NCBI GenBank assembly: GCA_965219905.1
Contig: CBDCOS010000002.1
Location: 2,287,318 to 2,351,317 of the forward strand
Source: an uncultured Candidatus Binatia bacterium
GTDB taxonomy: Bacteria > Desulfobacterota > Binatia > UBA9968 > JAJDTQ01
Direction of reading: 5' to 3'
Length of the DNA: 64,000 bases
Part shown: positions 12,186 through 63,902 of the stretch, piece by piece
Numbering within the stretch: position 1 is the stretch's first letter
How the letters are laid out: every line of letters starts with the position of its first letter
Position numbers and translations under genes: made by a program
The notes under the pieces: model-generated
Told to the model about the DNA's origin: nothing
The model's input: only the letters and a program-made list of their open reading frames with translations
Databases searched by the model: none

Positions 12186-12527
12186 ATGGGCAAATACATG
12201 TTCCACACTTCGTACACCGCGAAAGGGCTTCCGGGCCTGCTCAAGGAGGGCGGCAGCCGGCGGCGGGCGGCGTTGACCCAGACCATCGAAGGAATGGGCG
12301 GCAGCGTGGAGGGGCTCTACTACGCCTTCGGCGATACGGACCTCTACATCATCGCCGATCTTCCCGACGACGCCACGGCGACGGCCGTGTCGCTTAACAT
12401 CGCCGATGCCGGCGCCCTCACTGTCAAGGCCACCGTGCTGATCACGCCGGAGACGGTGGACGAGGCGGTCAAGAAGAAGGTGCCCTACCGGCCGCCCGGA
12501 GCCCGCGCCGCTCGCGGCCGCAAGTAG
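12186..12527 (+). CDS. GYD domain protein
   Basis: YYAFGDTDLYIIADLPD pattern; GGAGG RBS. Confidence 0.8.
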   Translation: MGKYMFHTSYTAKGLPGLLKEGGSRRRAALTQTIEGMGGSVEGLYYAFGDTDLYIIADLPDDATATAVSLNIADAGALTVKATVLITPETVDEAVKKKVPYRPPGARAARGRK

Positions 12528-12630
12528 GACCTTTAGTGCGGTGTCCCACGCGCCTTTGTAGACGCTTGCGTGGGACACCACATTAGCGGCGGCACCGGCT
12601 TGAGCGGGCGCCGGTGTTCCTTTTTCCGCC

Positions 12631-14535
12631 ATGCCCCTCGTCAGCTTCGAAGACATCTCGCTGGAGCTGGGCGACCAGCGGCTGCTGGCGCACGCCGAGT
12701 TCGCCATCGAGCCCGGGGAGCGGGTCTGCCTGATCGGCCGGAACGGCGCGGGCAAGACCTCCATGCTCCGGCTCATCACCGGCCGGCTCGAGCCCGACCA
12801 CGGCGAGATCCACTACCAGGGCCGCATCCGCATCAGCGAGCTGGAGCAGGCGCTTCCGGAGGAGCTCGGGCAGACGGTGCGGGAATACGTCACCACCGGG
12901 TTGGCGGACCTGCAGGAGCTCATCGACCTCTACCAGCAGCGCTCCGGCGAGGTCCTGGACCGCAAGGGCCTCCTGGAGCTGGAGGCGTTGCACCGGGAGA
13001 TCGACGCCCACGGCGGCTGGCACGTGGACCAGCGGGTGGAAACGGTCCTGAGCGAGTTGGACCTGCCCGCGGACCGGAGGCTGGAGGAGCTTTCCGGCGG
13101 CTGGCAGCGCCGGGTGGGGCTCGCCCGGGCCATCGTCGGTAACGCCGAGCTGCTGCTCCTCGACGAGCCCACCAACCACCTGGACCTGAGCACCATCCAG
13201 TGGCTGGAGGACCGGGTCTACAACTACGCGGGCGCCGTGCTCTTCATCACCCATGACCGCGCCTTCCTGCGCAGGCTCGCCACGCGCATCGTCGAGCTGG
13301 ACCGCACCCGGCTCACGAGCTGGCCGGGAACCTACGACAACTACCTCGACCTCAAGGAAAAGAGCCTGGCGGAGGACGCCCGCCGCAACGCCCTGTTCGA
13401 CAAGCGGCTGGCCCAGGAGGAGGCGTGGATCCGCCAGGGCATCAAGGCCCGCCGCACCCGCAACGAGGGCCGCGTGCGCGCCCTCATGGCCATGCGGGAC
13501 GAGGCGGCCCAACGCCTCAAGCCCCCGAGCCAGGCGCGCATCCACGTGCAGCACGGCGGGCAGTCGGGCCGCAAGGTGGTGGAGCTCCGCAACGTCACCC
13601 ACGGCTACGGCGGCGAGCCGCTGATCCGGAACCTGTCGCTCCGGATCATGCGCGGCGACCGCATCGGCCTCATCGGCAACAACGGCGTGGGCAAGAGCAC
13701 GCTGCTGCGCGTTCTCGTGGGGGAGATGGCGCCCGACTCCGGCGTTGTGGAGCAGGGAGCCAATCTCGAGATCGGCTACTTCGACCAACTGCGGCGTGAG
13801 CTGGACCCGGAGAAGACCGTGGCCGAGACCGTGGCGGACGGCCGCGACCACGTCTTCGTCAACGGCAGGCCGCGCCACGTGGTGGGCTACCTCAAGGGTT
13901 TTCTCTTCAGCCCCAAGCGCGCCTTGACCCCGGTGGCGGCGCTGTCCGGCGGCGAGTGCAACCGCGTCATCCTGGCCCGGTTGCTGACCCAGCCGGCCAA
14001 CCTGCTGGTGCTGGACGAGCCCACCAACGACCTCGACATCGAGACCCTGGAGGTGCTGGAGGAGCAGCTCGTGCGCTACCGCGGCACGCTGCTGGTGGTG
14101 AGCCACGACCGCAGCTTCCTCGACAACTGCGTTACCAGCACGCTGGTGTTCGAGGACACCGGGCTGATCCAGCGCCACGCCGGCGGCTACAGCGACTGGC
14201 TCCGGCGCGGCAAGGCCCTGGCCGTCACCGACGATCCCAACCGCAAGGGCGCACAGGAGCCGGCGCGGGACCGCAGGGAATCCCGTTCCCGGCCCACCAA
14301 GCTCAGCTACATGCTGCAACGGGAACTGGACGAGCTGCCCGGACGCATCGAATCCATGGAGCAGGCCGTGGCCGCGCTGGAGGAAAAGACCCAGCAGCCG
14401 GACTTCTACGCCCGGCCCTTCGCGACGGTCCAGCCGGTCCTCGACGAGCTCAAGACCGCCAAGGCGGCCCTCGACCAGGCGCTGGAGCGCTGGACCGAGC
14501 TGGAGACAATGAGGGAGGAGGCGGAGCGGCGCTAG
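12631..14535 (+). CDS. uup: ABC-F ATPase Uup
   Basis: Two ABC domains (GRNGAGKT, LSGG, LDEPTN), WIRQGIKARRTRNEGRVRAL linker, KLSY..QREL C-terminal domain. Confidence 0.92.
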   Translation: MPLVSFEDISLELGDQRLLAHAEFAIEPGERVCLIGRNGAGKTSMLRLITGRLEPDHGEIHYQGRIRISELEQALPEELGQTVREYVTTGLADLQELIDLYQQRSGEVLDRKGLLELEALHREIDAHGGWHVDQRVETVLSELDLPADRRLEELSGGWQRRVGLARAIVGNAELLLLDEPTNHLDLSTIQWLEDRVYNYAGAVLFITHDRAFLRRLATRIVELDRTRLTSWPGTYDNYLDLKEKSLAEDARRNALFDKRLAQEEAWIRQGIKARRTRNEGRVRALMAMRDEAAQRLKPPSQARIHVQHGGQSGRKVVELRNVTHGYGGEPLIRNLSLRIMRGDRIGLIGNNGVGKSTLLRVLVGEMAPDSGVVEQGANLEIGYFDQLRRELDPEKTVAETVADGRDHVFVNGRPRHVVGYLKGFLFSPKRALTPVAALSGGECNRVILARLLTQPANLLVLDEPTNDLDIETLEVLEEQLVRYRGTLLVVSHDRSFLDNCVTSTLVFEDTGLIQRHAGGYSDWLRRGKALAVTDDPNRKGAQEPARDRRESRSRPTKLSYMLQRELDELPGRIESMEQAVAALEEKTQQPDFYARPFATVQPVLDELKTAKAALDQALERWTELETMREEAERR

Positions 14536-14574
14536 CCCGGAAGCCCCGGCCGAGGTACCCATCCACGCCACACC

Positions 14575-14624
14575 CCTGGATTCCCGCTTTCGCGGGAATG
14601 ACGGAGAGGGGCGGGAATGACGGA
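14575..14624. repeat. dRS3-like REP plus extra half-site
   Basis: cctggattcccgctttcgcgggaatgacggagaggggcgggaatgacgg. Confidence 0.8.
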
Positions 14625-14706
14625 AGGGGCCGCTACTCCGCGAGGGAGCGGACGGGCTCATTGCCTGCCCACCGAACTTCCGATAAGAAGGTGTGCGGAG
14701 ACACCC

Positions 14707-17004
14707 ATGAGAAAACAACGACTGTCGGTGGCCGGGCGCAATTCCATGCGGGTGGACGCGGTGGAGAAGGTGTCCGGCAAGGCGTTCTATACCGGGGACA
14801 TCGAGCTTCCGGGAATGGCGTATGCCAAGATCCTGAGGAGCCCGTTGCCCCATGCGCGGATACTCAACGTCGACGCAAGCAAGGCGCGGGAGTTGCCCGG
14901 GGTCATCGACGTGCTGACACGGGACGAGCTCGCAGGCCTCAACTACCAGTACGGCGCCACCTACAAGGATCAGTCCGTGGTGGCGACGGACAAGGTCCGC
15001 TACGTCGGCGACCCGGTGGCCGCGGTGCTGTCGGCGGACGAGCTGGTGGCCGAGGAGGCCCTGGCGCTCATCGACGTGGAGTACGAGGAGCTGCCGTTCG
15101 TGGACAACGTGGACGACGCCCTGGCGCCGGGGGCGCCGCAGGTGCACGAGGGCGACGTGGCCAAGGCCGAGCTGCGGGGATCGAGGTACGGCGCGCCGCC
15201 CCGGTTCAAGGGCACCAACGTCTGCTACCACTTCGGCTACTCCCGGGGCGACGTGGAGGACGGCTTCGCCAAGTCCGACCACGTCTTCGAGGACGTCTTC
15301 CGCTTCTCCAAGGTGCAGCACTACTCGCTGGAGCCCCACATCTGCCTCGCCCACTACGACGGCGAGCGGCTGACGGTGTGGAGCTCGTGCCAGGACCCGT
15401 TCACGCTGAGGGGGCACCTGGCCGGGATCTTCAAGCTGCCGCTCAACCGGGTGCGGGTGGTGGTGCCCTACGTCGGCGGCGGCTACGGCGGCAAGCTCTA
15501 CGTCAAGGCCGACCCCATCGCGGCGGCGCTGTCGGTGCGGAACGGTCGGCCGGTCAAGCTGGCCATGAGCGTCAACGAGAGCTTCAAGACGGTGACGCGC
15601 CATCCCGCGCGCATCCGCATCAAGACCGGGGTGAGCAGGAAGGGCGAGATGATGGCCCGGGAGCTGGAGGTCTACATGGACACCGGCGCCTACGCCGACG
15701 CCGGTCCCCGGGTGACCCAGAAGGCCGGCTACCGGGCGGTGGGTCCCTACCGCGTCGCCAACGTCAAGATCGACGCCCACGGCGTCTACAGCAACACGGT
15801 GCCGGCGGGGGCGTTCCGCGGCTTCGGCGCGGTGCAGGTGGCCTGGGCCTACGAGTCGCAGATGGACATGATCGCCAACCGGCTCGGCATGGACCCGCTG
15901 GACTTCCGCCTCAAGAACCTGCTGGAGAAGGGCGAGCCCTACACCCCCGGCGACACCCCGGTGGACTGCGACCTCAAGCAGGGGCTTCGCAAGGTGGCCC
16001 GGGCGCTGGACTGGAAGAAGGCCTCCGGGCCCAACGTCGGCAAGGGGTTGAGCGTGTGCCTGAAGGACGCCGGGGGCACCTACAAGGTGGCGGGGGCGAC
16101 GGTGAAGATGTCGTCGGACGGCAGCGCGGTGCTGCTCACCGGAACGGTGGAGGTGGGGCAGGGATGCCGCACGGCGCTCAGCCAGGTGGTGGCGGAGGAG
16201 CTGGGCATCGAGCTCGAGCAGGTGTCGGTGGCGCAACTGGACACCGACGTGACCCCGTTCGACGTCTCCACCAGCGCCAGCAGCTCCATGACGGTCATGG
16301 GCCTCGCGACCCAGCGGGCCGCCCAGGACGTCAAGAAGCAGTTGCTGCGGGCGGCGGCCAGGGTCATGAAGGAGAAGGCCGGCGACCTCACGCTCAAGGG
16401 CGGCCGGGTGCGCGCCGGCAAGGGCCGGGGGGTGGCCTACAGCGACATCATTTCCGAGTACTTCGGCAGCTCCGCCACCGAGATCGTCGGCCGCGGGGTG
16501 TACCAGGACAAGAAGAGCAAGACCGCGGTACTGGGCTCCCCCACCACCTTCTGGGAGGTGGGCTGGGGCGGCGTGGAGCTGGAGGTGGACCCGGAGACCG
16601 GCGTCATCCGCATCCTCAAGTACGTGTCCATGGCCGACGTGGGCCGGGCCATCAACCCGTTGCAGTGCGAGGGCCAGGACGAGGGCGGCGTGGTCTTCGC
16701 CATCGGGCACACGCTGCTGGAAGACATGGTGTACGAGAACGGCCAGCTCCTGAACCCGAACCTCATCGACTACCGGGTGCCGAACTTCCACGACCTGCCG
16801 GAGAACTTCATCTCCGAGCTGGTGGAGAGCGGCAACGGCCCCGGCCCGTTCGGCGCCAAGGGCATGGGCGAGGGCGGCGTGCTGCCGGCCGCTTCCGCCA
16901 TTGCCGCGGCGGTGGAAGACGCCGTGGGAGTGCGCATCTGCGACCTGCCGCTGTCGCCGCCCAAGGTGTGGCAGCGGCTGCAGGAGCGCGCGAGCGCCGG
17001 CTAA
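14707..17004 (+). CDS. Xanthine dehydrogenase family molybdopterin-binding large subunit
   Basis: VGGGYGGK, GAFRGFG, EVGQG, GQDEGG, GAKGMGE Moco motifs. Confidence 0.92.
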   Translation: MRKQRLSVAGRNSMRVDAVEKVSGKAFYTGDIELPGMAYAKILRSPLPHARILNVDASKARELPGVIDVLTRDELAGLNYQYGATYKDQSVVATDKVRYVGDPVAAVLSADELVAEEALALIDVEYEELPFVDNVDDALAPGAPQVHEGDVAKAELRGSRYGAPPRFKGTNVCYHFGYSRGDVEDGFAKSDHVFEDVFRFSKVQHYSLEPHICLAHYDGERLTVWSSCQDPFTLRGHLAGIFKLPLNRVRVVVPYVGGGYGGKLYVKADPIAAALSVRNGRPVKLAMSVNESFKTVTRHPARIRIKTGVSRKGEMMARELEVYMDTGAYADAGPRVTQKAGYRAVGPYRVANVKIDAHGVYSNTVPAGAFRGFGAVQVAWAYESQMDMIANRLGMDPLDFRLKNLLEKGEPYTPGDTPVDCDLKQGLRKVARALDWKKASGPNVGKGLSVCLKDAGGTYKVAGATVKMSSDGSAVLLTGTVEVGQGCRTALSQVVAEELGIELEQVSVAQLDTDVTPFDVSTSASSSMTVMGLATQRAAQDVKKQLLRAAARVMKEKAGDLTLKGGRVRAGKGRGVAYSDIISEYFGSSATEIVGRGVYQDKKSKTAVLGSPTTFWEVGWGGVELEVDPETGVIRILKYVSMADVGRAINPLQCEGQDEGGVVFAIGHTLLEDMVYENGQLLNPNLIDYRVPNFHDLPENFISELVESGNGPGPFGAKGMGEGGVLPAASAIAAAVEDAVGVRICDLPLSPPKVWQRLQERASAG

Positions 17005-52179: not shown

Positions 52180-53208
52180 TCACAGGTTGTACAGCACCCG
52201 CGCGTTCCCGCCGGTGATTTTGGCTTTGACCTCCGGGCCCAGGCGCGGGTCGTTGGCGACGCCGTCTATGGCCAGCAGCTCGGTGGCGCTGTCCGCGTGG
52301 CCGTAGTCGGTGCCCACCACCAGGTTGTCCTCGCCGGCGTTGTCGATGATGTAGGGAAGATCGTCGGTGGTCTCGCACCCGACCCAGATCCGGCTCTTTG
52401 CCAGCAGTTCGTTCCGGTTGAACCCCTGCTCCTTTACGTACGGGCGCTTGTACAAGTCGGTCAGCGCGTAGGGGAGCCACTGCGCGCTGACCTCCAGGAA
52501 CCCCATCTTGAGCTTGGGGAATCGCTCGGGGATCCCGCCCGCGACGATGGTGTGGAAAGCCCCCACCACGACCAGCTTGAACTTCGAGAAGGCCACGGGC
52601 TCGTACTTGTAGTAGTCGTGCAGCACGGAGCTGCCGTTGGAGGCGTGGATGCACACCGGCATGTCCAGCCTGCCGGCGGCGTCGTACACCGGATAGAAGA
52701 AGGGGTCGTTCAGCAGCCGTTCGCCCTCGGAGCCGCGCATGTAGATGCCCACCGCGCCGTTCTCCTTGGCCAGCTTGGCCTCCTCGTACACCTGTTCCGG
52801 GCTGAGGAGCGGCACCACCGCCACCCAGCGCAGGCGGTTGTCGGACTGCTTCCAGCATTCCCCCATCCAGCGGTTGTAGCTGCGGCACAGCGCCAGCTCG
52901 ATCTCGGGCCGGGGGGTCAGCGGGATGATGAAGATGGTGGGGAAGATGACCTGGATGTCCACCTTGAGCTCGTCCATGTGCTTGAGCCTCATGGCCACGT
53001 CGCGCAGTTCGCGGGCCTCCACCGGCGTGTCCTTGCCCACGTTGCGGGTCTTGAGGCGCAGGGTGCCGTCCACCAGCCAGTACTCGTCCCCGGCGGCGCC
53101 GTTGGTGGAGCCGACGACCTCGGGCCGGTACTTCCGGTCGGCGCCGTCCATGAACTCCCAGGTCTCCTCGGTTTCGAGAACGTGTGCGTCCGCATCGATT
53201 CTGAGCAT
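52180..53208 (-). CDS. Amidohydrolase family 2 protein (tandem paralog B)
   Basis: DADAH, IFPT, CIH, GTDYGH. Confidence 0.9.
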   Translation of the reverse strand: MLRIDADAHVLETEETWEFMDGADRKYRPEVVGSTNGAAGDEYWLVDGTLRLKTRNVGKDTPVEARELRDVAMRLKHMDELKVDIQVIFPTIFIIPLTPRPEIELALCRSYNRWMGECWKQSDNRLRWVAVVPLLSPEQVYEEAKLAKENGAVGIYMRGSEGERLLNDPFFYPVYDAAGRLDMPVCIHASNGSSVLHDYYKYEPVAFSKFKLVVVGAFHTIVAGGIPERFPKLKMGFLEVSAQWLPYALTDLYKRPYVKEQGFNRNELLAKSRIWVGCETTDDLPYIIDNAGEDNLVVGTDYGHADSATELLAIDGVANDPRLGPEVKAKITGGNARVLYNL

Positions 53209-53325
53209 TTCGGTTCCCTCCCCTAGTGGGATTGCATTGACGCAGGCCGATTCTCGGCCTGATATTCGTGTCCTCTAACCGAAGTCCGGGAACGAATCAA
53301 CGCCCCTTCCACGCCGGCGCCGATC

Positions 53326-54357
53326 TCAAAGGTTGTACAGCGCCCGTGCGTTCCCCCCGGTGATCTTGGCGGCTACCTCCGGGCTCAGCCGCGGGTCGTT
53401 GGCGACTCCGTCCAGGGCCAGCAACTCGGTGGCGCTGTCGGCGTGGCCGTAGTCGGTGCCCACCACCAGGTGGTCCTCGCCCGCGGTTTCGACGACGTAG
53501 GGCAGGTCGTCGTTGGTCTCGCAGCCGATCCAGATGCGGTTCTGAGCCAGCAGCTCCTTCTTGTTCATCTCCCGGCCCGCCATGTGCTCGCGCTTGGAGA
53601 GGTCGCTCAGGGCGTAGGGCAGCCACTGGGAGCCCACCTCGAGGAAGGCCATCTTGAGCTTGGGGAACCGCTCGGGGATCTTGTCCATGACGATGGTGTG
53701 GAACGCTCCCACCACCACCAGCTTGAACTTCGAGAAGCCCACGGTCTCGTACTTGTAGTAGTCGTAGAGCACGGGGCTGCCGTTGGAGGAGTGGATGCAC
53801 ACCGGGATGTCCAGCTTCTCGGCGGCATCGTAGACCGCGTAGAAGTAGGGGTCGCTCAGCAGCCGTTCCCCCTCGGACCCACGCATGTAGATGCCCACGG
53901 CGCCGTTCTCCCTGGCCTGCCGGGCTTCGTCGTACACCTGGTCCGTGCTCAGCAGCGGCACCACCGCCACCCAGCGCAGGCGGTTGTCGGACTGCTTCCA
54001 GCATTCGCCCATCCAGCGGTTGTAGCTGCGGCACAGCGCCAGCTCGATCTCGGGCCGTGGGGTGAGCGGGATGATGAAGATGGTGGGGAAGATGACCTGG
54101 ATGTCCACCTTTAGCTCGTCCATGTGCTTGAGCCGCACCGCCACGTCCCGCAGTTCGCGCGACTCCAGCGGCGTGTCCTTGCCGACGTTGCGGGACTTGA
54201 GCCGCAGGGTGCCGTCCACCAGCCAGTACTCGTCGATTTCGCCGGAACCGTTCAGGGAGCCGACGATGTCCGGGCGGAACTTCCGATCGGCGCCGTCCAT
54301 GAACTCCCAGGTCTCCTCGGTTTCGAGAACGTGTGCGTCGGCATCGATTCTGAGCAT
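53326..54357 (-). CDS. Amidohydrolase family 2 protein (tandem paralog A)
   Basis: Highly similar to 52180-53208 over its full length. Confidence 0.9.
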   Translation of the reverse strand: MLRIDADAHVLETEETWEFMDGADRKFRPDIVGSLNGSGEIDEYWLVDGTLRLKSRNVGKDTPLESRELRDVAVRLKHMDELKVDIQVIFPTIFIIPLTPRPEIELALCRSYNRWMGECWKQSDNRLRWVAVVPLLSTDQVYDEARQARENGAVGIYMRGSEGERLLSDPYFYAVYDAAEKLDIPVCIHSSNGSPVLYDYYKYETVGFSKFKLVVVGAFHTIVMDKIPERFPKLKMAFLEVGSQWLPYALSDLSKREHMAGREMNKKELLAQNRIWIGCETNDDLPYVVETAGEDHLVVGTDYGHADSATELLALDGVANDPRLSPEVAAKITGGNARALYNL

Positions 54358-54430: not shown

Positions 54431-55246
54431 TCAACGGCCCTGCCACTTCGGTGGCCGCTTCTCCACGAAGGCCAGCGGCCCTTCCTTGCAGTCTTCGGTG
54501 GTGAGGACCAGGGTGGCGAGATCGGACTCCAGGCGCAGCGCCTGCTCCAGCGGCAGGCCCTGGCCCTTGTGGACCGACTCCTTGATGTACCGAAGGGCCA
54601 GGGGCGCGCCCTTGGCGAAGGATGCCGCCATCTCCTCGCCGGCGCCCGTCAGCTCATCCACCGGCACCAGCTTGTTGACGAGCCCGATGCGGTACGCTTC
54701 CTGGGCGTCCACGAGCGCCCCGGATAGGCACATCTCCAGGGCCTTGGCGGCGCCCACGAGGCGGGCGAGCCGTTGCGTCCCGCCCGAACCCGGCATGAAG
54801 CCGAGCCGGACCTCGGTCACGCCCAACCGGGCGTTCTCCGCGGCGATGCGGATGTCGCAGGCCATGGCGATCAACAGGCCGGCTCCGACCGTGTAGCCGT
54901 GCAACAGCGCGATGGTAGGCTTCTGCACCAGCGCCACGGCATCGATGGGCGAATGGACCCCCGGAGCCTGCTTTGCCTGCCGGGCCTCCAGGGGAGACGC
55001 CGATGCCGCCGCCGGTTCGGCGTTGCGGCTGGCCCGCTCCTTGATGTCGCCGCCCACGGTAAAACCCTTCTCGCCGGCGCCCCGGAAGAGCACCACCTGG
55101 ACGTCCCGGTCCGCCTCCGCACGGGCACAGTACTCGATGATGAGCCGCCGCATCTCCTCGTTGATGGCGTTCAGCACCTCCGGGCGGTTCAGCGTGATCC
55201 AGGCGGTCTGGTCCTTTACTTCATAGAGAACCTTGTCGTCGCTCAT
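54431..55246 (-). CDS. Enoyl-CoA hydratase/isomerase family protein
   Basis: TLNRPEVLNA, GGDIKE, ACDIRIA, EVRLG..PGSGGTQRL. Confidence 0.92.
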   Translation of the reverse strand: MSDDKVLYEVKDQTAWITLNRPEVLNAINEEMRRLIIEYCARAEADRDVQVVLFRGAGEKGFTVGGDIKERASRNAEPAAASASPLEARQAKQAPGVHSPIDAVALVQKPTIALLHGYTVGAGLLIAMACDIRIAAENARLGVTEVRLGFMPGSGGTQRLARLVGAAKALEMCLSGALVDAQEAYRIGLVNKLVPVDELTGAGEEMAASFAKGAPLALRYIKESVHKGQGLPLEQALRLESDLATLVLTTEDCKEGPLAFVEKRPPKWQGR

Positions 55247-55289
55247 GGGCTTTGTCTCCAATCCTCGTCACCGCGGTGACGGGACGGGT

Positions 55290-56333
55290 TCAGGACTCGC
55301 CGCGATCAAGCCGGTAGACCCCGGTCGCCGTGTCATGAAACAGTGCATTCCGCTCCGGCTCGGAGTACTCCCCCGCGATGATCTTGAATGCATTCCACAC
55401 CGACCCATAGGAGTAGGACACCCGGTCCACCGGAAAGTTGCTTTCGAACATGCAGCGGCCGGTGCCGAACTTCTCGATGCAGTGTTCGAAGTAGGGCCGC
55501 ATGGCTTCGGCCAGCTCGGCGGAGCCGGGCTTGGGGTCGCGCGTGTGCCAGTCGTAGCCCGAGCGCAAGGAGCCGACGCCGCCCAGCTTGAGCACCACGT
55601 TGGCGCAGGACGACAGCGCGGTGATGTCGGCGCTCCAGTTCCGGAAAACCTCGTCGCGCCGTCCCTCGTAGGGGCCGAGCCCCAGGGGGCCGCCGATGTG
55701 GTCGAGGATGATGGGCACCTCCGGGAAGTCCCGGGCCAGCTCCACCAGCTCGGGAATCTGCGGGTGATAGAGCCACGCGTCGAAGCTGAGCCCCAGGGGC
55801 TGGAGGCGCGCGAAGCCCTTCCGGACCGTGGCGTCCCGGAGCAGGCCGGCGCGCGGCACGCTCCGGAACGAGTCCGACGCGTCCCACATGGTGGAATAGC
55901 GGATGCCCCGCAGGCGGGTGGGGCTGGCCTCCAGGTGTGCTTCCAGTACGGCGGCCACGGCGTCGCCCAGGGACAGGTCGGCGTAGGCCACGATGGCGGC
56001 CGCTACCGTCGGCGGCGTCCCCGAGGAAGAGCTCTCCGCCGCGATGCCCTCCAGGAACTCCGTCTCGCCCACCGGCTGCAGCTCCGGCGGTCCGCTTTCG
56101 CGGTACATCGCCCCGCATTCCACCGCCACGCTGGAGACGATGCGATGGCCGGCCGAGGCGTCGCGCAGGAAATCGTCGAGCAGGTACGGGTTGTCGGGAC
56201 GCCGCCACAGGTGATGGTGCGGGTCGCAGATGGGGAGATCGAGCTCCAGCGGGGCTTCTTCAACCACGCCGGCCATGGGTTGGGTCACGTTCGCACTGTC
56301 CCTTCGAGTTTGGTAGACAGGGTTTTCCTTCAT
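55290..56333 (-). CDS. Amidohydrolase family protein (lactonase-like)
   Basis: DPHHHLW, PVGETEF, ILDHIGG, MFESNFPVD; start may be ATG 56276. Confidence 0.88.
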   Translation of the reverse strand: MKENPVYQTRRDSANVTQPMAGVVEEAPLELDLPICDPHHHLWRRPDNPYLLDDFLRDASAGHRIVSSVAVECGAMYRESGPPELQPVGETEFLEGIAAESSSSGTPPTVAAAIVAYADLSLGDAVAAVLEAHLEASPTRLRGIRYSTMWDASDSFRSVPRAGLLRDATVRKGFARLQPLGLSFDAWLYHPQIPELVELARDFPEVPIILDHIGGPLGLGPYEGRRDEVFRNWSADITALSSCANVVLKLGGVGSLRSGYDWHTRDPKPGSAELAEAMRPYFEHCIEKFGTGRCMFESNFPVDRVSYSYGSVWNAFKIIAGEYSEPERNALFHDTATGVYRLDRGES

Positions 56334-56364: not shown

Positions 56365-57621
56365 GTGGATTTCGAGCTGGCCCGTTACCCTGTCCAGTCC
56401 CTTTCCTGGGGCGCCCACACCGAATATCGGGAAGGCGAACTCGTTGTCAACCGCGAGGCGCTGCGCGCCGAGCTGCTGACCGAACCGCTTGTTGACGACG
56501 TCGAGCTGAGCATCATCCGGCCCGGGGAGCGTACCCGGGTGCTCCACGTGGTGGACATCGTCGAGCCCCGTTGGAAGGACCCGGAACGCGGCAGCGCGTT
56601 CCCCGGCAGCCTCGGGCCGCTGGTCCAGTGCGGCCTCGGCCGCACCCACGCGCTGGACGGCGTGGCGGTGGTGACGTCCGGCTCGCTGCCCCGGTCCGAG
56701 GAGGCCATCATCGACATGTGCGGCCCCGGCAGCGAGTTGAGCCGGTTCGGCCAGATGCCCGGTCTGGTGGTGCTGCCCAGGGCGCGCGAGGGGTCCGACC
56801 CCGGCGAGTTCGGCCTGGCGCTCATGCGCGCGGGGCTTCGGACGGCGGTCTTCCTGGCCCAGACCACCCAGGGGGTCGAGCCGGCCCGCACCGAAGCCTT
56901 CTCCCTGGACCTGGGACGCAACGCGTCGTCGGACCTGCCGCGCGTGGGATACCTGAGCTTCGCCTACTCCCACGGCATCGGCCGCCAGAAGCTCTTCTAC
57001 GGCAAGAGCACCAAGGACATCGTTCCCAGCGTGATCCATCCCAACGAGCTGCTGGACGGAGCGCTGGTGAACGACGGCTATACCAAGCCCACCAAGAACG
57101 CCACCCACGACATCCTGAACCACCCGATGATCCGGGAGCTCCACCGCCGCCACAACCGCGACCTCGTGTTCGCGGGCATGGTGCTGGCCAACCATTACGC
57201 CACATACGAAGAAAAGGCCGCCGGGGCCTGGCACGCGGCACGCCTGCTCAGGCACGTGGTGGAGGCCGACGCGGTGGTCATCACGAAGGACGGCGGCGGC
57301 CAGGCGGACGTGGACCTGATGCTGGCCTGCCGGGCGTGCGAGGAGGCGGGGCTGCGCACGGTGCTGGTGGCCAAGGAGGAGTCCGGGGGCGACGGTCCGT
57401 CGATGGTGGACGTGGCGCCCCAGGCGGACGCCATGGTGAGCGTGGGCAACTGTCCCGAGAAGGTGCGCCTCGATCAGTCCATGGAACTGGTCATCGGCGG
57501 CGATGCCTTTCTCGGCGCCATCCAGGGGGACGTGGCCGGCACGGTGGAGATCCCGGTCCAGAACATCATCGGCGCCATCGATCCCATCGGCGGCTCGACG
57601 TTGACGGCACGGCCGGGGTAG
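56365..57621 (+). CDS. Glycine/sarcosine/betaine reductase component B proprotein-like subunit (GrdE/GrdI-like)
   Basis: IIRPGERTR..DIVEPR, G.THALDGVAVV, IIDMCGPG, HPNELLDGA, NHPMIREL, GGG.ADVD. Confidence 0.85.
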   Translation: MDFELARYPVQSLSWGAHTEYREGELVVNREALRAELLTEPLVDDVELSIIRPGERTRVLHVVDIVEPRWKDPERGSAFPGSLGPLVQCGLGRTHALDGVAVVTSGSLPRSEEAIIDMCGPGSELSRFGQMPGLVVLPRAREGSDPGEFGLALMRAGLRTAVFLAQTTQGVEPARTEAFSLDLGRNASSDLPRVGYLSFAYSHGIGRQKLFYGKSTKDIVPSVIHPNELLDGALVNDGYTKPTKNATHDILNHPMIRELHRRHNRDLVFAGMVLANHYATYEEKAAGAWHAARLLRHVVEADAVVITKDGGGQADVDLMLACRACEEAGLRTVLVAKEESGGDGPSMVDVAPQADAMVSVGNCPEKVRLDQSMELVIGGDAFLGAIQGDVAGTVEIPVQNIIGAIDPIGGSTLTARPG

Positions 57622-57631
57622 GAGGGACAAC

Positions 57632-58921
57632 ATGAAGCGAATCGTCCACTACGTGAACCAGTTCTTCGCCGGCCAGGGCGGCGAGGAGAGCGCGGACGCG
57701 CCGCCGGGCGCGCTGGAAGGGGCGGTAGGGCCGGGCAGGCTGTTGCAGACCTTGCTGGGTGAAGGAGCCGGCGTCGTGGCCACGGTCTACTGCGGCGACG
57801 ACCACTTCTCCGAGAACGAGGAGGGCGCGACGGCCCGGCTGCTGGAGCTCATTGCCGAGACCAAGCCCGACTTGCTGTTCGCCGGCCCGGCCTTCGGCTC
57901 GGGGCGCTACGGGCTGGCGTGCGCCGGCGTGTGCCGGGCGGTGGCGGCCGAGTTGGGCATACCGGTGCTGACCGCCATGTCGCCGTCCAACCCCGGCGCC
58001 GATTCGATTCGAAGCACGATCCCGGTGGTGCAGACCGGCGAGTCGTCGGGCGACATGCGCGCCGCCCTCGAACGCTCGGCCGCGGTCATCGTCAAGCTCC
58101 TCACCGGTGAGGCCGTGGCTCCGGGCAGCGAGGAAGGCCTGATTCCCCGCGGCGGCCGGTGGAACACGCGGGTCTCCAGGCACGCGGCCGAGCGGGCCGT
58201 GGACCTGTTGCTGGCGAAGCTCGGCGGCGGTCCGATGGAGACGGAGATCCCGCTGCCGCCGTTCCAGGAGGTGGCGCCGGCGCCGGGCATCCGCGACCTC
58301 GGCCACGCCAGGATCGCGCTGGTCACCACCGGCGGCCTCGTGCCCCGGGGAAACCCGGACGGCATCAAGTCGTACCTGTCCACCCACTTCGGCGCCTACG
58401 GCATGGAGAGCAGGGAGCACCTCGCCGCGGACGACTTCGAGTCCGTTCACGGCGGTTTCTTCACCGCGGCGGTGAACCAGGACCCCAACCGGCTGATCCC
58501 TCTGGACGTGCTGCGGGATGCCGTGCGCGACGGGTCCCTGGGCGGGCTGCACGAGTACTTCTACTCCACCACGGGCAACGGCACGCCGGTGGAGACCGCC
58601 GCCGAGATGGCGCGGGACATCGCTTCATCGCTGGAGGAGGACAAGGTCGACGGCGTCATCCTCACCTCCGCCTGAGGGACCTGCACTCGCTGCGGCGCAG
58701 CGATGGCAAAGGAACTGGAGAGAGCCGGCATCCCCACCGTGCACGTCACCAATCTCGTGTCGGTGTCGGAGAACACCGGCGCCAAGCGGATCATGTCGGG
58801 ACGGGCCATCCCGCACGTTTTCGGCGACCCGGCGCTTGACGCGGACGAGGAGCGACGGCTCCGGCGGCGGCTGGTGGAACAGGCGCTTGAGATGCTGAAA
58901 GAGCAGGAGAGCGCGACGTAA
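57632..58921 (+). CDS. grdB: Glycine/betaine/sarcosine reductase selenoprotein B (Sec at UGA 58673-58675), 429 aa
   Basis: HYVNQFFAGQGGEE, GPAFGSGRYG, HGG, DPNR; in-frame ILTSA-TGA-GTCTRCGAAM continuing into the 58703-58921 ORF. Confidence 0.93.
58687..58703 (+). promoter_or_regulatory. Putative bacterial SECIS hairpin
   Basis: tcgctgc-ggc-gcagcga, 17 nt long, starting 11 nt after the UGA, with G-first loop. Confidence 0.75.
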
Positions 58922-58936
58922 CGGACCGATTAGGGG

Positions 58937-58965
58937 TTGACACAGGCACTGTAAAGTCGGTTAAT
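58937..58965 (+). promoter_or_regulatory. Possible sigma70 promoter of the tct operon
   Basis: Perfect TTGACA followed by N17-GTTAAT (weak -10 box). Confidence 0.4.
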
Positions 58966-58993
58966 CGCACGATCAAACCCGAAGGAGGCACGC

Positions 58994-60040
58994 ATGTTTA
59001 GACGAATTCCCGTTCTGATGGCAGGGTTGCTGCTCCTGGCGAGCCCCGCGTGGGGCGACGCGGTGGCGGATTTCTACAAGGGCAAGCAAATTCGCATTGT
59101 CGTGGGTTATGGTCCGGGCGGCACCACCGACCTCACCACCCGGCTCATTGCTCCGGTCCTGCACAAGTACATTCCCGGCAGTCCCCGGATCGTGGTCCAG
59201 AACAAGTCGGGCGGCGGCAGCGCCCTGGCGGCCAACACGGTGTTCAACAACGAGCGCAGGGACGGCACCGTGATGGCGGCCATCAGCAGCAGCCTCGTCA
59301 TGAAGCAGGCTCGCGGCGTGGCGGGGATCAAGTTCGACGGCAGAAAGTTCAACTGGGTCGCGAGCGCGTTCCGGGCCAACTCCGCGTGCGCGGTGCGGCT
59401 GGATGCGGGCGTGAGCACCTTCGCCGAGGCGGTGAAGACCAAGAAACAGCTCATCGTGTCGAGCTTCGACAAGGGGGGTCTGTCCCACCTCGAGCCGATC
59501 TTCTTCAACGCGATCTTCGGCAGCAACTTCAAGGCCGTGACGGGATTCCCCAGCGGCGGCGCGCAGCGTCTGGCGGTGAAGAACGGCGAGGTCAACGGCT
59601 TCTGCACGACGTTCCAGACCATGGCCAGCACCGAGATCGCCATGTTCGAGGGTGAGGGGAAGTGCTGCCGCGTCCTGATCATCGCCGGCGAGAAGAAGGC
59701 GGACCACCCGCTGCTGAAGGGCGTGCCCGCGGCCGAGGCGCTGGCCAAGGAGCAGGGCAAGAGCAAGGACGAACTGGCCATGCTGAGGGCGATGAACGCC
59801 ACCAACCAGATCAGCATCGTCCACACGCTCCCGCCCGGAGTGCCGAAAGACCGTGTCGAGGCCCTGCGCGACGGCTTTGCCAAGGCATACAACGACCCGC
59901 AGGTCCAGGCACTGGCCAAGAAGCAGAACCGCAATCTGCAGCCCAGGCGGGGCGACGGCGTGGCCAAGATCGTCGAGGAGTTGCTCAACACTCCCAAGCC
60001 CCTGATGGACAAGATCAAGGCTCTCATCGCGAAGGGCTAA
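58994..60040 (+). CDS. tctC: Tripartite tricarboxylate transporter substrate-binding protein
   Basis: Signal peptide, FYKGKQIRIVVGYGPGGTTD, VQNKSGGGS, GEV. Confidence 0.9.
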   Translation: MFRRIPVLMAGLLLLASPAWGDAVADFYKGKQIRIVVGYGPGGTTDLTTRLIAPVLHKYIPGSPRIVVQNKSGGGSALAANTVFNNERRDGTVMAAISSSLVMKQARGVAGIKFDGRKFNWVASAFRANSACAVRLDAGVSTFAEAVKTKKQLIVSSFDKGGLSHLEPIFFNAIFGSNFKAVTGFPSGGAQRLAVKNGEVNGFCTTFQTMASTEIAMFEGEGKCCRVLIIAGEKKADHPLLKGVPAAEALAKEQGKSKDELAMLRAMNATNQISIVHTLPPGVPKDRVEALRDGFAKAYNDPQVQALAKKQNRNLQPRRGDGVAKIVEELLNTPKPLMDKIKALIAKG

Positions 60041-60083
60041 ACAGCGGCGGCGTGCCGTCGAATCAACGTGGGTGATACCGGGA

Positions 60084-60120
60084 CCCGGTCCGCGTCCGCC
60101 GCCGGCGGTCGCGGGCCGGG
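60084..60120 (+). other. GC-rich stem-loop between tctC and tctA (mRNA stabiliser or attenuator)
   Basis: cccggtccgcg-t-ccgcc-gcc-ggcgg-t-cgcgggccggg. Confidence 0.55.
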
Positions 60121-60198
60121 CTCCGCTCTCCGTACCCTGCTGAAACCCGAACTCTAACCCGAAAACCGCGAACCAGCCGTTCCCGTTGCCACGACGCC

Positions 60199-61695
60199 AT
60201 GCTGGAAGCCTTCATCACAGGACTCATCCAGGTATTCGATCAGACCACGTTCCTGCTGATGTGCATCGGCATCTTCCTGGGGTTCATCGTCGGGATCCTG
60301 CCCGGCATCGGCAGCCCCGGGGCGGTGGCGCTCATGCTGCCGTTCATCTTCGAGATGGACCCGGTGCAGGCGTTCGCCTTCCTGCTGGGGATGTACGCGG
60401 TCACCGGCACCACCGGTGACATTACCTCGATCCTGTTCGGCGTGCCCGGGGAGGTGGTGTCCACCGCCACCATCATCGACGGGCACCCCATGGCCAAGAA
60501 GGGCGAGGCCGGCCGCGCCCTGGGCGCGGCGCTCATGAGCTCGCTGGTGGGCGCCATCGTCGGCGCCTTCTCCCTGGCGTTGGCCATCCCCATCGTCACC
60601 CCGCTGGTGCTCTCCTTCAAGTCGCCGGAGTTCTTCTCTCTTGCGATTTTGGGGATCTGTTTTCTCGCGGCGCTGAGCGGCGACAACAAGCTCAAGGGGG
60701 TGCTGGCCGGCGGACTCGGGCTCGTGCTTTCCACGGTGGGCCTGGACTACCAGGAGAACATCGAGCGCTATACCTTCGGCCTGGTGAACCTGTGGGAGGG
60801 CGTGGGACTCATCGCCGCGGCCGTGGGATTGTTCGCGGTGCCCGAGATCGTGGAACTGTGGGTCAAGGGCTCTGCCATCGCAGAAGCCAAGGTGGGCAAG
60901 CTGGGCGGCGTGTGGCAGGGGGTCAAGGACACCTTCGTCCACATCGGCATCACCGTGCGCTGCAGCATGATCGGCACCTTCTTCGGGCTCGTGCCCGGGG
61001 TGAGCGCCGCGCTGTCCCAGTGGGTGTCCTACGCCCACGCGGTGCAGAGCACCCGGGACCGCAGCGGCTTCGGCAAGGGCGACGTGCGTGGCGTCCTGGG
61101 GCCGGGTGCGGCCAACAACTCGGGCATCGGCGCCGCCATGATCCCCACCGTGGCCTTCGGCGTGCCCGGCAGCGCCACCACCGCCATCCTGCTGGGCGCG
61201 TTCATCATCCAGGGATTGCAGCCCGGGCCGAAGATGCTGACCGAACACCTGTCCCTGACCTTCTCGTTCGTCTGGCTCATCGTCATCTCGAACATCATCA
61301 CCGTGGTGCTGTGCCTGCTGTTCCTGAACCAGTTGGCGAAGATCACCCAGGTCCGCGGGTCGCTGCTGATTCCCGCGCTGTTCATGCTCATCTTCCTGGC
61401 GGGTTTCGCCAACACCGGGTCCTACTTCGCCATGACCACCACGCTGGTGTTCGGAGTGATGGGGGTGGTGATGGTGAACCACGGCTGGCCGCGCCCGCCG
61501 CTGGTGCTGGGGCTGGTGCTGGGGTCCCTGGTGGAGCGGAACCTGTTCATCTCCTACGAGATCTACGGGCTTGCGTTCCTGCTGCGGCCCATCGTCATGG
61601 TGACCTTCGGCATCGCGCTGGTCGTGATCTTCCTGCCCGGCTTGCAGGACTGGATGGCGAAGCGGGGTCAGCTCAAGGAGGAGCCGGATGCGTAA
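60199..61695 (+). CDS. tctA: Tripartite tricarboxylate transporter permease TctA
   Basis: GILPGIG, ILFGVPG, DGHPMAKKG.AGRAL, AANNS, GVPGS. Confidence 0.93.
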   Translation: MLEAFITGLIQVFDQTTFLLMCIGIFLGFIVGILPGIGSPGAVALMLPFIFEMDPVQAFAFLLGMYAVTGTTGDITSILFGVPGEVVSTATIIDGHPMAKKGEAGRALGAALMSSLVGAIVGAFSLALAIPIVTPLVLSFKSPEFFSLAILGICFLAALSGDNKLKGVLAGGLGLVLSTVGLDYQENIERYTFGLVNLWEGVGLIAAAVGLFAVPEIVELWVKGSAIAEAKVGKLGGVWQGVKDTFVHIGITVRCSMIGTFFGLVPGVSAALSQWVSYAHAVQSTRDRSGFGKGDVRGVLGPGAANNSGIGAAMIPTVAFGVPGSATTAILLGAFIIQGLQPGPKMLTEHLSLTFSFVWLIVISNIITVVLCLLFLNQLAKITQVRGSLLIPALFMLIFLAGFANTGSYFAMTTTLVFGVMGVVMVNHGWPRPPLVLGLVLGSLVERNLFISYEIYGLAFLLRPIVMVTFGIALVVIFLPGLQDWMAKRGQLKEEPDA

Positions 61696-62233
61696 CCGGA
61701 CGGACGTCATCATCGGCGTGCTGCTGGTGACGCTCCTCTCGTGGTCGGTCTGGGAGGCGCAGGGGTGGCCGGCCCGCACCCGTTTCTTCCCCCTGGCCAT
61801 CGGCTATCCGGTGCTGGCCATGGCGGTGATGCACCTCGCGTACAGCCTGTGGCTGGGGCTCCGGCCCGCCAGGTTCGACCGGGGTCCGGCGGCGCCCCAG
61901 CCCGTGGTGGAAGCCGGGCCCGTGCTGGAACCGGCCATGGTTCGCCGGCGCACGCTCGAGATCTCCTTCTGGGCCGTGATGTTTGCCTTGGGTCTGTATC
62001 TCCTGGGGTTCAAGGTGGGCGGGCTGGTCATACCGGTGATCTTCCTCCGATTTCAGGCCCGCGAGCTCTGGCGCACCAGCCTCCTGTACAGTCTGGGCGT
62101 GTACGTCTTCTTCAAGATCGGGCTGGAGGAGGCGCTTTCATTTCCGCTGCCCGCCGGCCAGATCGCCTTCGGACTGGGCCTCTACTCCTTCGATTCCTAC
62201 CTGATTGACCCGGTTCTGAACCTGGTGCGTTGA
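61688..62233 (+). CDS. tctB: Tripartite tricarboxylate transporter small subunit TctB
   Basis: 4-5 TM segments, FFP, LGF, PLPAG; overlaps the tctA stop. Confidence 0.8.
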   Translation: MRNRTDVIIGVLLVTLLSWSVWEAQGWPARTRFFPLAIGYPVLAMAVMHLAYSLWLGLRPARFDRGPAAPQPVVEAGPVLEPAMVRRRTLEISFWAVMFALGLYLLGFKVGGLVIPVIFLRFQARELWRTSLLYSLGVYVFFKIGLEEALSFPLPAGQIAFGLGLYSFDSYLIDPVLNLVR

Positions 62234-62268
62234 GGGGGTCCCGTACCCGAAGATTCGGCGGAAGGACC

Positions 62269-63462
62269 ATGTCCGGCGCTCTCAAGGATAAGTTCGCCAT
62301 TGTCGGCCTCGGGCTGCTTGCCGGCCGGTTCGAAGACCGAAGCCTGCGGACGCTCCAGGCGGAGGCCGCCCGGCTCGCCATCGAGGACGCCGGCCTCACC
62401 ACAAGCGACGTCGACGGTGCGGTCGATCTCAAGATCGCACCCGGCGCGGGAGACGTTCCGTCCTCGACCGATGCCTTTCCGCGCGTTCTCGGCCTGCCGT
62501 GCCGCATGTTCTTCCAGGTTGCCCGTGGCGGCACCGCCAGCATCGTCGGCATTGTCGCGGCTACCAAGTTTCTCGAGCTCGGCATGGCCAACTATGTCGT
62601 GCTCGCGTCGGGTACGAAGGATTACTCGCGGAGCCGGGTTGCGCGGCGAACGGGCAATACCAGCATCGGAGTCATGGAAAAATCGGGCTATTGGGGGAGG
62701 CCGTTCGGCGATCTGGCGGCGATGAGTCACCACACTTTCTTTGCTGCGCGCCACATGCACGAGTTCGGCACGACGAAGGAGCAGTTCGGCGAGATTTCCG
62801 TGGCGATCCGCGGTTGGGCCCAATCCAACCCATTGGCGCAGTTCCGTGATCGGCCGCTGACGCTGTCCGAATACATGGACGCTCCACCCCTCGTCTGGCC
62901 CTACAACATCTTCGACGCTTGCGTCGTGAGCGACGGCGGGTTCGCCATCGTCCTGACAACCGCCGAACGGGCGAAGGACCTGGCCCGCAAACCCGTCCAT
63001 GTTTCGGGCGCCGGGGTGGGAGAGGCCATGGGGCAGCTCTGGTGGGACAAGGCCAACTACACGCGTCTTGCCGTACAGACCGCCAGGGAAACCGCCTTCC
63101 GTGAAGCGGAGATCGACCTCGAGGATCTCGACTTCGCGGGGCTCTATGATTGTTTCACCGCCGAGGTGCTGTTCCAGTTGGAGGATTACGGATGGTGCAG
63201 GAAGGGTGAAGGTGGCGCTTTCGTCGAGGGAGGGCGCATCGGTCCGGGGGGCGAGGTCGCGATCAATACGAGCGGCGGGCTCCTGTCGGCATATCACCTG
63301 GGCGAGCAGACTCATGTCGCGGAGGCCATCATGCAGCTCCGCGGCGAAGCCGGCGAGCGGCAGGTGGCAAACGCGAGGATCGGGATGGCGACGGGACACG
63401 GCGGCGAGATCCTTTCGCCCGGGATGTGCTCGACCCATGCCTGCGTGATCCTGAGCAACTGA
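62269..63462 (+). CDS. Thiolase-fold protein (SCP2/Ltp2-like, no canonical catalytic Cys)
   Basis: AIVGLG, NPLAQFR, DACVVSDGG, LYDCFT, NTSGGLLS, QLRGEAGERQV. Confidence 0.88.
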   Translation: MSGALKDKFAIVGLGLLAGRFEDRSLRTLQAEAARLAIEDAGLTTSDVDGAVDLKIAPGAGDVPSSTDAFPRVLGLPCRMFFQVARGGTASIVGIVAATKFLELGMANYVVLASGTKDYSRSRVARRTGNTSIGVMEKSGYWGRPFGDLAAMSHHTFFAARHMHEFGTTKEQFGEISVAIRGWAQSNPLAQFRDRPLTLSEYMDAPPLVWPYNIFDACVVSDGGFAIVLTTAERAKDLARKPVHVSGAGVGEAMGQLWWDKANYTRLAVQTARETAFREAEIDLEDLDFAGLYDCFTAEVLFQLEDYGWCRKGEGGAFVEGGRIGPGGEVAINTSGGLLSAYHLGEQTHVAEAIMQLRGEAGERQVANARIGMATGHGGEILSPGMCSTHACVILSN

Positions 63463-63482
63463 AGCCAGCGCAAGTGGAGCCG

Positions 63483-63902
63483 ATGATCATGTCTGCGTCC
63501 TACCCGAAGCCGGCCATCGATGAGGACAACAAGCCATTCTGGGACGCGGTCCGGAATCGGAAGTTCGTGCTGATGCAGTGCCGTGAGTGCGGCGCCTGGT
63601 ATTGGCCGGCGGCCTACTGCCGCAATCACGCCAACCAGCCTTTCTACGGCAGCCTCGAGTGGCGCGAAGCGTCGGGCCGCGGCAAGGTCTTCGCATACAA
63701 CGTGCATCACCGGGCCTTCGATCCGGCTTTCAAAGCCGATCTGCCCTATGTCTATGCTTTGATTGAGCTTGAGGAAGGCCCGATGTTCGGCACGAACATC
63801 GTGGGCTGCGAACCGGGTGATGTTTCGATCGGCATGGACGTAGAGGTCCGTTTTATCGAAAGGGGCGGCGCCTTGTTGCCGGTCTTTGGGCCCGGGGGCT
63901 GA
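63483..63902 (+). CDS. Zn-ribbon/OB-fold (DUF35) protein
   Basis: PFWDA, QCRECG..WP..C, ASGRGKV, PYVYALIELEEGP, IGMDVEV.F. Confidence 0.9.
   Translation: MIMSASYPKPAIDEDNKPFWDAVRNRKFVLMQCRECGAWYWPAAYCRNHANQPFYGSLEWREASGRGKVFAYNVHHRAFDPAFKADLPYVYALIELEEGPMFGTNIVGCEPGDVSIGMDVEVRFIERGGALLPVFGPGG

Follow-up and report, generated by a model that had tools for sequence, protein, structure and literature searches.

The textbook hosts of Grd reductases are strict anaerobes that ferment amino acids, and in clostridia GrdD carries the acetyl thioester. The related selenoenzyme D-proline reductase (PrdA/PrdB) needs neither GrdA nor GrdC. Bednarski et al. in 2001 reportedly found that the Cys at the cleavage site of GrdE becomes a pyruvoyl group. 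Here we describe a grdE-like/grdB pair, encoding the alpha and beta subunits of a Grd 'protein B', beside genes for a tripartite tricarboxylate transporter (TTT) in a 64,000-nt stretch of DNA from an uncultured Candidatus Binatia bacterium. This whole stretch is called the window, and gene positions are numbered within it; the genome it comes from (98.65% complete, 5.09 Mb) is labelled G000, with contigs C2 and C3. The pair belongs to an unusual, pared-down form of the glycine/betaine reductase known from clostridia and does not stand as a new enzyme on its own. Probably it is a protein B with its own substrate specificity, of the type found in betaine and fluoroacetate reductases, which uses a GrdA/GrdC core lacking GrdD and whose substrate is a carboxylate taken up by the TTT.

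One account (PMC10838667) states that a Cys at the cleavage site of the GrdE pro-protein yields the pyruvoyl group. It adds that the cysteines required for processing are missing from FarE, as they are from GrdI, and that FarE is no pro-protein. In many bacteria, according to the same account, a common reductase is fed by several protein B complexes, each with its own substrate specificity. That arrangement of several modules with one core, described there for Bacillota and Synergistota, is also the pattern seen in G000.

Several features of the window pair are shared with the betaine reductase GrdI/GrdH of Bacillota of the Peptoclostridium/Eubacterium acidaminophilum type. The alpha subunit lacks the pyruvoyl Cys, the beta subunit reads U-G-T-C-T-R-C, the genes run in the order alpha subunit, beta subunit, uptake system (grdI-grdH precede a BCCT betaine-transporter gene in the two Bacillota loci examined), and GrdA and protein C are encoded elsewhere. 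The differences are that the window GrdB scores 421.2 bits against the GrdH cut-off of 775 (NF040795) and falls in a separate clade, that the alpha motif is NDGYTKPT where GrdI has SGSFMP, that the importer is a TTT and not a BCCT system, and that the host is an oxidase-bearing member of the Binatia without GrdD, whereas the known hosts are fermenting Bacillota. FarB/FarE of Cloacibacillus (Synergistota), according to the same account (PMC10838667), is likewise a divergent protein B module that stands beside its own transporter, has an alpha subunit without processing cysteines and feeds a shared Grd core, as we propose for the window module. However, the window alpha subunit reaches only 155.4 bits with the fluoroacetate reductase FarE model (NF053623, cut-off 675), and FarB is reported to lack the CxxC after the selenocysteine (Sec), which the window GrdB keeps; a paralogue in G000 (C3:891598, UxxSxxS) shows a FarB-like loss.

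Glycine reductase GrdE/GrdB belongs to the same two families as the window pair and has Sec at the same position, and the GrdA (CxxU) and GrdC families that serve it are also present in G000. Unlike glycine reductase, the window alpha subunit has no pyruvoyl Cys, the beta subunit is below the cut-off of the GrdB model (TIGR01917, 457.9 against 602.2 bits), and the Grd genes of the genome are dispersed instead of forming one operon, with GrdD absent and GrdC without its C-terminal tail. The D-proline reductase is further away: the PrdB model matches residues 217-426 of the beta subunit only (78.9 against 300 bits), leaving the N-terminal half outside, and the PrdA model gives 29 bits against 700.

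The grdE-like and grdB genes

The locus is G+C-rich (62-69%). The grdE-like gene (56365-57621, + strand) encodes a 418-residue GrdE/GrdI-like alpha subunit of protein B, which matches PF09338 Gly_reductase, the GrdE/G/I family that partners GrdB, with 329.5 bits over residues 3-415. After a gap of 10 bp follows grdB (57632-58921, + strand), whose selenoprotein beta subunit comprises 429 residues and a stop. As called without readthrough, its reading frame is 57632-58675 (+) and ends at an in-frame TGA (58673-58675, + strand); with the TGA read as Sec, the stop lies at 58919-58921 and the product reads ...TSA-U-GTCTRCG..., giving the UxxCxxC motif U348-G-T-C-T-R-C. The selenoprotein B family model TIGR01918 runs through the TGA, matching residues 3-423 with 492.9 bits (cut-off 65.45), and PF07355 GRDB gives 424.8 bits (cut-off 22).

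Following the TGA is a hairpin (58680-58712, + strand) like a selenocysteine insertion sequence (SECIS), with a 7-bp G+C-rich core stem at 58687-58703, a GGC loop and outer pairs. The TGA, the next 81-85 in-frame codons and the hairpin are all kept in 17 of 17 grdB orthologues, and among them the 48 nt starting at the TGA hardly vary; the sole stem change, A to G in one orthologue (L029), retains a U-G pair. The fold energy of the 74-nt stretch after the TGA was no better than that of shuffled sequences (z = 0.41, not significant), so the case for a SECIS element is one of conservation. Over the whole 428 codons, comparison of the window gene with eight orthologues gave a synonymous divergence (dS) of 0.28-0.54 and a dN/dS of 0.15-0.22, indicating purifying selection. 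The Sec machinery of the genome is complete, with tRNA-Sec (73.1 bits), SelA (583.5), SelB (366.9) and SelD (374.1). Judged from these sequence comparisons, the grdB TGA is a real selenocysteine codon. The selA, selB and selD genes are clustered at C2:2168588-2172888, about 171 kb upstream of the pair, and selD itself holds an in-frame TGA.

Both subunits stand apart from the named reductases. In addition to the GrdB, GrdH, FarE and proline reductase models above, the sarcosine reductase models were below their cut-offs (GrdF 489.7 against 800 bits; GrdG, NF040793, 238.9 against 780). An exhaustive profile-free search returned 1671 GrdB relatives at E<=1e-3, the nearest outside its own 50% cluster being 41-48% identical. 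A tree of the part before Sec was built from 93 rows (LG+G4, quick search, midpoint root, SH-aLRT support only). It drew on 150 database representatives, less 68 fragments or fusions outside 335-460 residues, and its clades were labelled by identity to three Sedimentibacter references; verified GrdF, FarB and PrdB were not included. NCBIfam labelling of 60 of the 150 representatives at E<=1e-130, a threshold that was too strict, named only two (P0103 and P0131). The window GrdB clade (SH-aLRT 100%) has a long stem, groups with three unnamed representatives (95%) and is nested in a large radiation without labels, separate from both the canonical GrdB (100) and GrdH (98) clades; the canonical clade, which holds the Sedimentibacter GrdB, excludes it. 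With every equivalog score below its cut-off and a separate clade in the tree, the sequence-only reading was right to set the pair apart from known reductases, and the results support the view that it is not orthologous to the glycine, sarcosine, betaine or fluoroacetate enzymes.

The alpha subunit was aligned with two references. The GrdE reference comes from a Sedimentibacter operon, grdE-grdB-trxB-trxA-grdA-grdC-grdD, whose GrdB scores 742.7 bits with TIGR01917 (cut-off 602.2) and whose GrdD scores 569.9 (cut-off 350); the GrdI reference comes from a grdI-grdH-BCCT operon whose GrdH scores 807.3 (cut-off 775). The aligned motif is DGALVNDGYTKPT in the window protein, DGAIVSGNCVSAC in the Sedimentibacter GrdE and DGALISGSFMPSS in the reference GrdI. 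At the site where GrdE has DGAIVSGNCVS the window protein has DGALVNDGYT, bearing out the earlier statement that the pyruvoyl-forming Cys is missing. Among 69 GrdE-like genes that stand beside 75 more distant GrdB genes, 61 have GNCV, three are of GrdI type and five are otherwise Cys-less. Since the Sedimentibacter GrdE and 61 of these 69 carry the Cys at this position, it is truly absent from the window alpha subunit. It is also absent from the pyruvoyl site of all four GrdE-like paralogues of the genome, none of which could thus form the pyruvoyl group by the known route, and Cys-less alpha subunits that are not of GrdI type occur in the non-Bacillota lineages that have GrdD-less systems.

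A GrdA/GrdC core without GrdD

The sequence-only reading took the pair to be stand-alone and to act outside the A/B/C scheme. At the level of the genome neither idea held. A grdC gene lies on the window's contig about 410 kb from the pair (505.6 bits, cut-off 450), directly upstream of grdA (C2:1933034-1933483; 208.4 bits, cut-off 130), which encodes a CxxU motif (QCFVU) with an in-frame TGA; homologues of TrxB and TrxA are encoded elsewhere in the genome. The genome copies of grdA, grdC and the trx genes all map outside the window, which, as had been stated, has none of its own. Of 61 genomes sampled from the class, six (G000, G030, G012, G057, G048 and G056) have full-length GrdB, GrdA and GrdC and the other 55 have none of the three; in G048 the genes form a single cluster, grdC-grdA-grdE-like-grdB. 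Moreover, grdC-grdA is present in 16 of the 17 genomes carrying an orthologous pair, the exception being a fragmented metagenome-assembled genome (MAG) with neither gene.

A complete grdA, grdC and grdD set elsewhere in the genome had been named as a finding that would count against the original idea. The first two genes exist, but GrdD was not found in G000, either by profile search or by tblastn with a verified Sedimentibacter GrdD. No GrdD scored above the cut-off in any of the 61 genomes of the class, and GrdD was not found in five further non-Bacillota genomes with GrdB-like genes (a Burkholderiales genome, two deltaproteobacterial MAGs, a Planctomycetota genome and a Dehalococcoidia genome), four of which have GrdA. 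Around the 75 more distant GrdB genes, grdA was within 8 kb in 51 loci and grdD in 41.

The end of GrdC also differs between the two kinds of locus. After the conserved C-terminal motif, GrdC extends by 31-38 residues in 28 GrdD-containing loci but by 1-10 residues in six loci (from Binatia and two deltaproteobacterial MAGs) that lack GrdD and have sufficient sequence downstream; the motif was unmatched in 14 loci, and one long-tailed GrdC lies 510 bp from a contig end. The extra tail is possibly a GrdD-docking element. GrdC itself is no obvious stand-in for GrdD, because the two proteins are not detectably homologous, and no conserved GrdD replacement adjoins grdC-grdA, its neighbours varying among G000, G030 and G012: G030 has a lactate-dehydrogenase-like gene, and G012 has macro-domain and HAD genes. 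Taken together, the Cys-less alpha subunits, the missing GrdD and the short GrdC point to a distinct Grd variant that would work without a pyruvoyl group and without GrdD.

In G000 the grdC-grdA pair, without grdD, spans C2:1931473-1933483 (L009:8474-10484). An M20 amidohydrolase gene is divergent from grdC, and grdA is followed by two tandem alpha/beta-hydrolase genes (L009:10487-12207) and an OppABC-type peptide transporter (12361-15986).

The genome also encodes heme-copper oxidase subunit I (492 bits). The earlier description of the genome as apparently aerobic stands to that extent, and because this subunit is present 'aerobic-capable' is a fair term.

Transporter linkage and alternative explanations

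The 72 bp that separate grdB from tctC hold no terminator-like site on the + strand. The tctC product is a divergent TctC-like periplasmic solute-binding protein (58994-60040, + strand; 348 residues with a signal-peptide-like N-terminal stretch; PF03401 19.2 bits, cut-off 27). It is followed by TctA, the large membrane subunit of the TTT (60199-61695, + strand; PF01970 406.6 bits, cut-off 28.9), and by a TctB-like small membrane subunit (61688-62233, + strand; PF07331 25.1 bits, cut-off 29.1) whose position and size fit. The tctC and tctB products score below the Pfam cut-offs, and their size and order fit a TctCBA transporter. A gene for an SCP-x/thiolase-like protein (62230-63462, + strand; PF22691 141 bits; NF004811 277.7 against a cut-off of 421) starts within the end of tctB, overlapping its stop, and is only loosely attached to the gene unit; its partner encodes a DUF35/ChsH2-type protein with an OB fold and a zinc ribbon (63426-63902, + strand; PF01796 71.9 bits, PF12172 28 bits). 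This gene closes the co-oriented run, as the next is a convergent M19 dipeptidase gene. On the other side, an Amidohydro_2 gene (55290-56333, - strand; PF04909 115.7 bits) begins 31 bp from the grdE start, followed by divergent genes for an enoyl-CoA hydratase (ECH; 54431-55261) and two further Amidohydro_2 proteins (within 52180-54357). Gene calls and Pfam matches thus agree with the gene arrangement first described, with tctCAB and thiolase/DUF35 downstream and co-oriented and ECH and amidohydrolases divergent.

The order grdE-grdB-tctC-tctA-tctB, all co-oriented, is found in 17 of 17 close Binatia loci, with GrdB 83-92% and TctA 92-98% identical across them; the tct linkage that the original idea needed is therefore conserved among these close relatives. 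The single-copy Amidohydro_2 gene (55290-56333) is kept in all 16 loci with enough upstream DNA, and ECH in 15 of 16 evaluable loci. Matches to grdE, to the 3' part of grdB and to tctC, but none to grdB 57697-58204, occur in contigs (90-95% alike) of four sponge or marine metatranscriptomic libraries (three studies); in two runs, from two studies, contigs continue from grdB into tctC. The source of these contigs is related strains, and DNA may be present in libraries of this kind; they therefore support expression weakly.

We favour the reading as a betaine/fluoroacetate-type protein B because the carbonyl is missing, the Sec-xx-Cys-xx-Cys motif is kept, an importer is adjacent and a GrdA/GrdC core exists elsewhere in the genome. 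The missing carbonyl speaks for a leaving group that needs no Schiff base, the TTT system a carboxylate substrate, and the missing GrdD a last step that differs from the clostridial acetyl-phosphate step. The mechanism would then be as follows. The alpha subunit, carbonyl-free and unprocessed as in GrdI and FarE, would join the selenocysteine beta subunit with its UxxCxxC redox motif in one specificity module, co-transcribed with the TTT importer that supplies its carboxylate. The three such modules in the genome would share the single GrdA and GrdC and draw electrons from the housekeeping thioredoxin system. By analogy with the known reductases, the selenolate would attack the alpha-carbon of an X-CH2-COO- substrate, and X would leave without Schiff-base activation; for this reason X should be a quaternary ammonium, sulfonium, arsonium or halide and not a primary or secondary amine. 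The carboxymethyl group would next move to the selenol of GrdA and be released reductively as an acetyl unit through GrdC. As there is no GrdD, the end product probably does not arise by the canonical GrdCD acetyl-phosphate step and may be acetate or another acetyl carrier. In this form the earlier proposal, a non-canonical reductase that is coupled to a transporter and acts on an onium-type carboxylate, still stands as a hypothesis.

A number of observations weigh against this reading. The grdE-grdB pair is 410 kb away from grdC-grdA, and we infer the hand-over to GrdA from co-occurrence only. With GrdD not found in the genome or in the 61 genomes of the class, the canonical A/B/C scheme cannot run unchanged. 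A conserved Tyr-Thr replaces the GrdE Cys-Val, and processing at another residue is compatible with the sequence. A sequence search of the PDB with both subunits gave no match, and hence no solved relative. On the transporter side, all 17 syntenic loci are from close relatives, the genome has about 40 TctC-like and about 23 TctA genes, and to our knowledge no TTT system carries betaines. Finally, in one Binatia chromosome (L040) grdE and most of grdB have been deleted, leaving the last 53 grdB codons (8001-8160, 85% identical), while tctCAB, the divergent amidohydrolase and ECH genes, including the single-copy Amidohydro_2 gene, and grdC-grdA elsewhere are retained. Because L040 keeps tctCAB after losing grdE-grdB, the importer can persist without the reductase.

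The last group of points raises the possibility of a genuine reductase module that is only incidentally associated with the TTT and flanking genes, in which case the substrate may be glycine betaine or another known Grd substrate imported elsewhere. We consider this unlikely, though it is the alternative that fares best. The abundance of the neighbouring families speaks for it: the two Amidohydro_2 genes at 52180-54357 have about 90 paralogues in the 5.09-Mb genome, and with families of about 90 and 40 copies Amidohydro_2 and TctC neighbours carry little weight. Among the 75 more distant GrdB loci, tctA was found in none and tctC in one, as a weak match, and thiolase/DUF35 follows tctB in only seven of the 17 close loci, which also counts against a tight link. 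Relatives of intermediate divergence add little: for the 65-68% identity tier (P0034-P0042), a scan of genome contigs gave only the 83-92% clade, and a single 1.6-kb metagenome contig carries grdE-grdB with the same Sec motif and ends inside grdB. Against an incidental link, all 17 species-level genomes retain the five-gene order while the thiolase varies, at a grdB dS of 0.28-0.54 in the eight genomes compared; the 72-bp gap has no terminator-like site on the + strand, and RNA-library contigs span both genes. Furthermore, four genes away from an orphan GrdE-like gene of G000 is a TctC-like gene belonging to the subfamily of the window tctC, its product being 33% identical to the window TctC-like protein over its full length, and in a Burkholderiales MAG (L061) a Cys-less GrdE-like gene paired with a Sec-GrdB gene lies amid four TctC genes. 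A glycine betaine substrate is also not what would be expected of a pair below the betaine-reductase cut-off (421.2 against 775) and outside the GrdH clade.

Closer to the original stand-alone idea is a self-contained enzyme of the D-proline-reductase kind. The pair would then reduce an alpha-substituted, longer-chain carboxylate to the saturated acid without GrdA or GrdC, and activation and breakdown of the product would fall to the neighbouring thiolase/DUF35 and to the divergent ECH. The 410-kb distance to grdC-grdA, the translational coupling of thiolase/DUF35 to tctB in G000, the retention of ECH upstream in 15 of 16 evaluable loci, a UxxCxxC motif that supplies its own resolving thiols and the lack of GrdD in any case all suit such an enzyme. 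However, GrdA and GrdC are in six of six genomes with full-length GrdB and in none of the 55 without, as well as in 16 of 17 genomes with the pair; the beta subunit is a full-length GrdB, matched by the PrdB model over residues 217-426 only (78.9 against 300); and thiolase/DUF35 is present in only seven of 17 loci. The other two GrdB paralogues could by themselves account for the retention of GrdA and GrdC, so that the co-occurrence is not decisive; on the whole we regard a self-contained enzyme as distinctly improbable. That the genes are non-functional relics, with the TGA a true stop and the downstream frame a remnant, is hardly credible and already contradicted: gene callers do end grdB at the TGA, and most of the 150 listed database relatives stop near residue 346-350, but the family match extends to residue 423, the TGA, the next 81-85 codons and the hairpin are kept in 17 of 17 orthologues, dN/dS is 0.15-0.22 over 428 codons, and the genome has the full Sec machinery.

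Other Grd loci and wider meaning

A count of paralogues, suggested along with the sequence-only reading, gave three Sec-GrdB genes and four GrdE-like genes in the genome. Their redox motifs differ, being UxxCxxC in the window GrdB, UxxSxxS at C3:891598 and UxxCxxS at C3:135299. The second GrdE-like/GrdB pair (C3:890304-892882; L010:10305-12882) reads U-G-T-S-T-R-S, both cysteines after Sec being gone, and its relative in G048, part of the grdC-grdA-grdE-like-grdB cluster there, adjoins an ArsS-type arsenosugar radical-SAM gene (442.8 bits) and a gene for an FAD disulfide oxidoreductase. The third pair (C3:135296-137946; L011:9297-11944) has the reverse order, grdB then GrdE-like, and reads U-G-T-C-S-R-S; it lies downstream of a divergent gene for a Rieske-domain protein and adjoins glyoxalase-fold and alcohol-dehydrogenase genes. 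The orphan GrdE-like gene, without GrdB, is at C2:1989053-1990354 (L012:9054-10352), in a run of class II aldolase, TctC-like, Amidohydro_2, SDR and GrdE-like genes.

The Burkholderiales locus (L061:6651-15173) combines the Cys-less GrdE-like gene and a Sec-GrdB gene (TAT-U-GTCTRCG) with its four TctC genes, and with genes for a proline-racemase-family protein, a GMC oxidoreductase and a family III CoA-transferase; its genome has GrdA, and a genome search did not find GrdD. In 24 other genomes of the class, open reading frames of about 150-260 residues match only the C-terminal half of GRDB (about 200-345), and these genomes have no GrdA or GrdC. From the extent of the match, such short proteins may be PrdB-like or other small GrdB-related proteins.

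The GrdD-less signature is found in oxidase-bearing, sponge-associated Binatia and also in deltaproteobacterial, Burkholderiales, Dehalococcoidia and Planctomycetota MAGs, and close relatives of the host occur in sponge and marine metagenomes. In the open-access papers searched, supplements aside, we found no account of Grd genes in Binatia or of GrdD-less systems. We tentatively entertain, as a somewhat doubtful extension of the preferred reading, that these genes make up an undescribed Grd variant, with pyruvoyl-free alpha subunits, no GrdD and a tail-less GrdC, which serves a non-Stickland, catabolic or detoxifying stripping of imported X-CH2-COO- compounds. Its substrates would be onium or halide compounds such as betaines, thetins, arsenobetaine and haloacetates, and it would release acetate or an acetyl thioester and no acetyl phosphate. 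If so, the TTT-linked module would define a class of substrate new to the Grd and TTT families alike.

In contrast with the textbook setting of these enzymes, three Sec protein-B modules, one GrdA and one GrdC are here encoded in a genome that also has a heme-copper oxidase. The TTT link offers an experimental handle on the substrate through the binding protein. The module may also indicate a source of trimethylamine-type products that searches with the grdH marker miss; one sponge study reports that grdH was not detected (PMC9999580). If active, the system would widen Grd chemistry as to the bonds cut and the end product, and its ecology would come to include animal-associated aerobes that split C-N, C-S, C-As or C-halogen bonds in osmolyte-like carboxylates.

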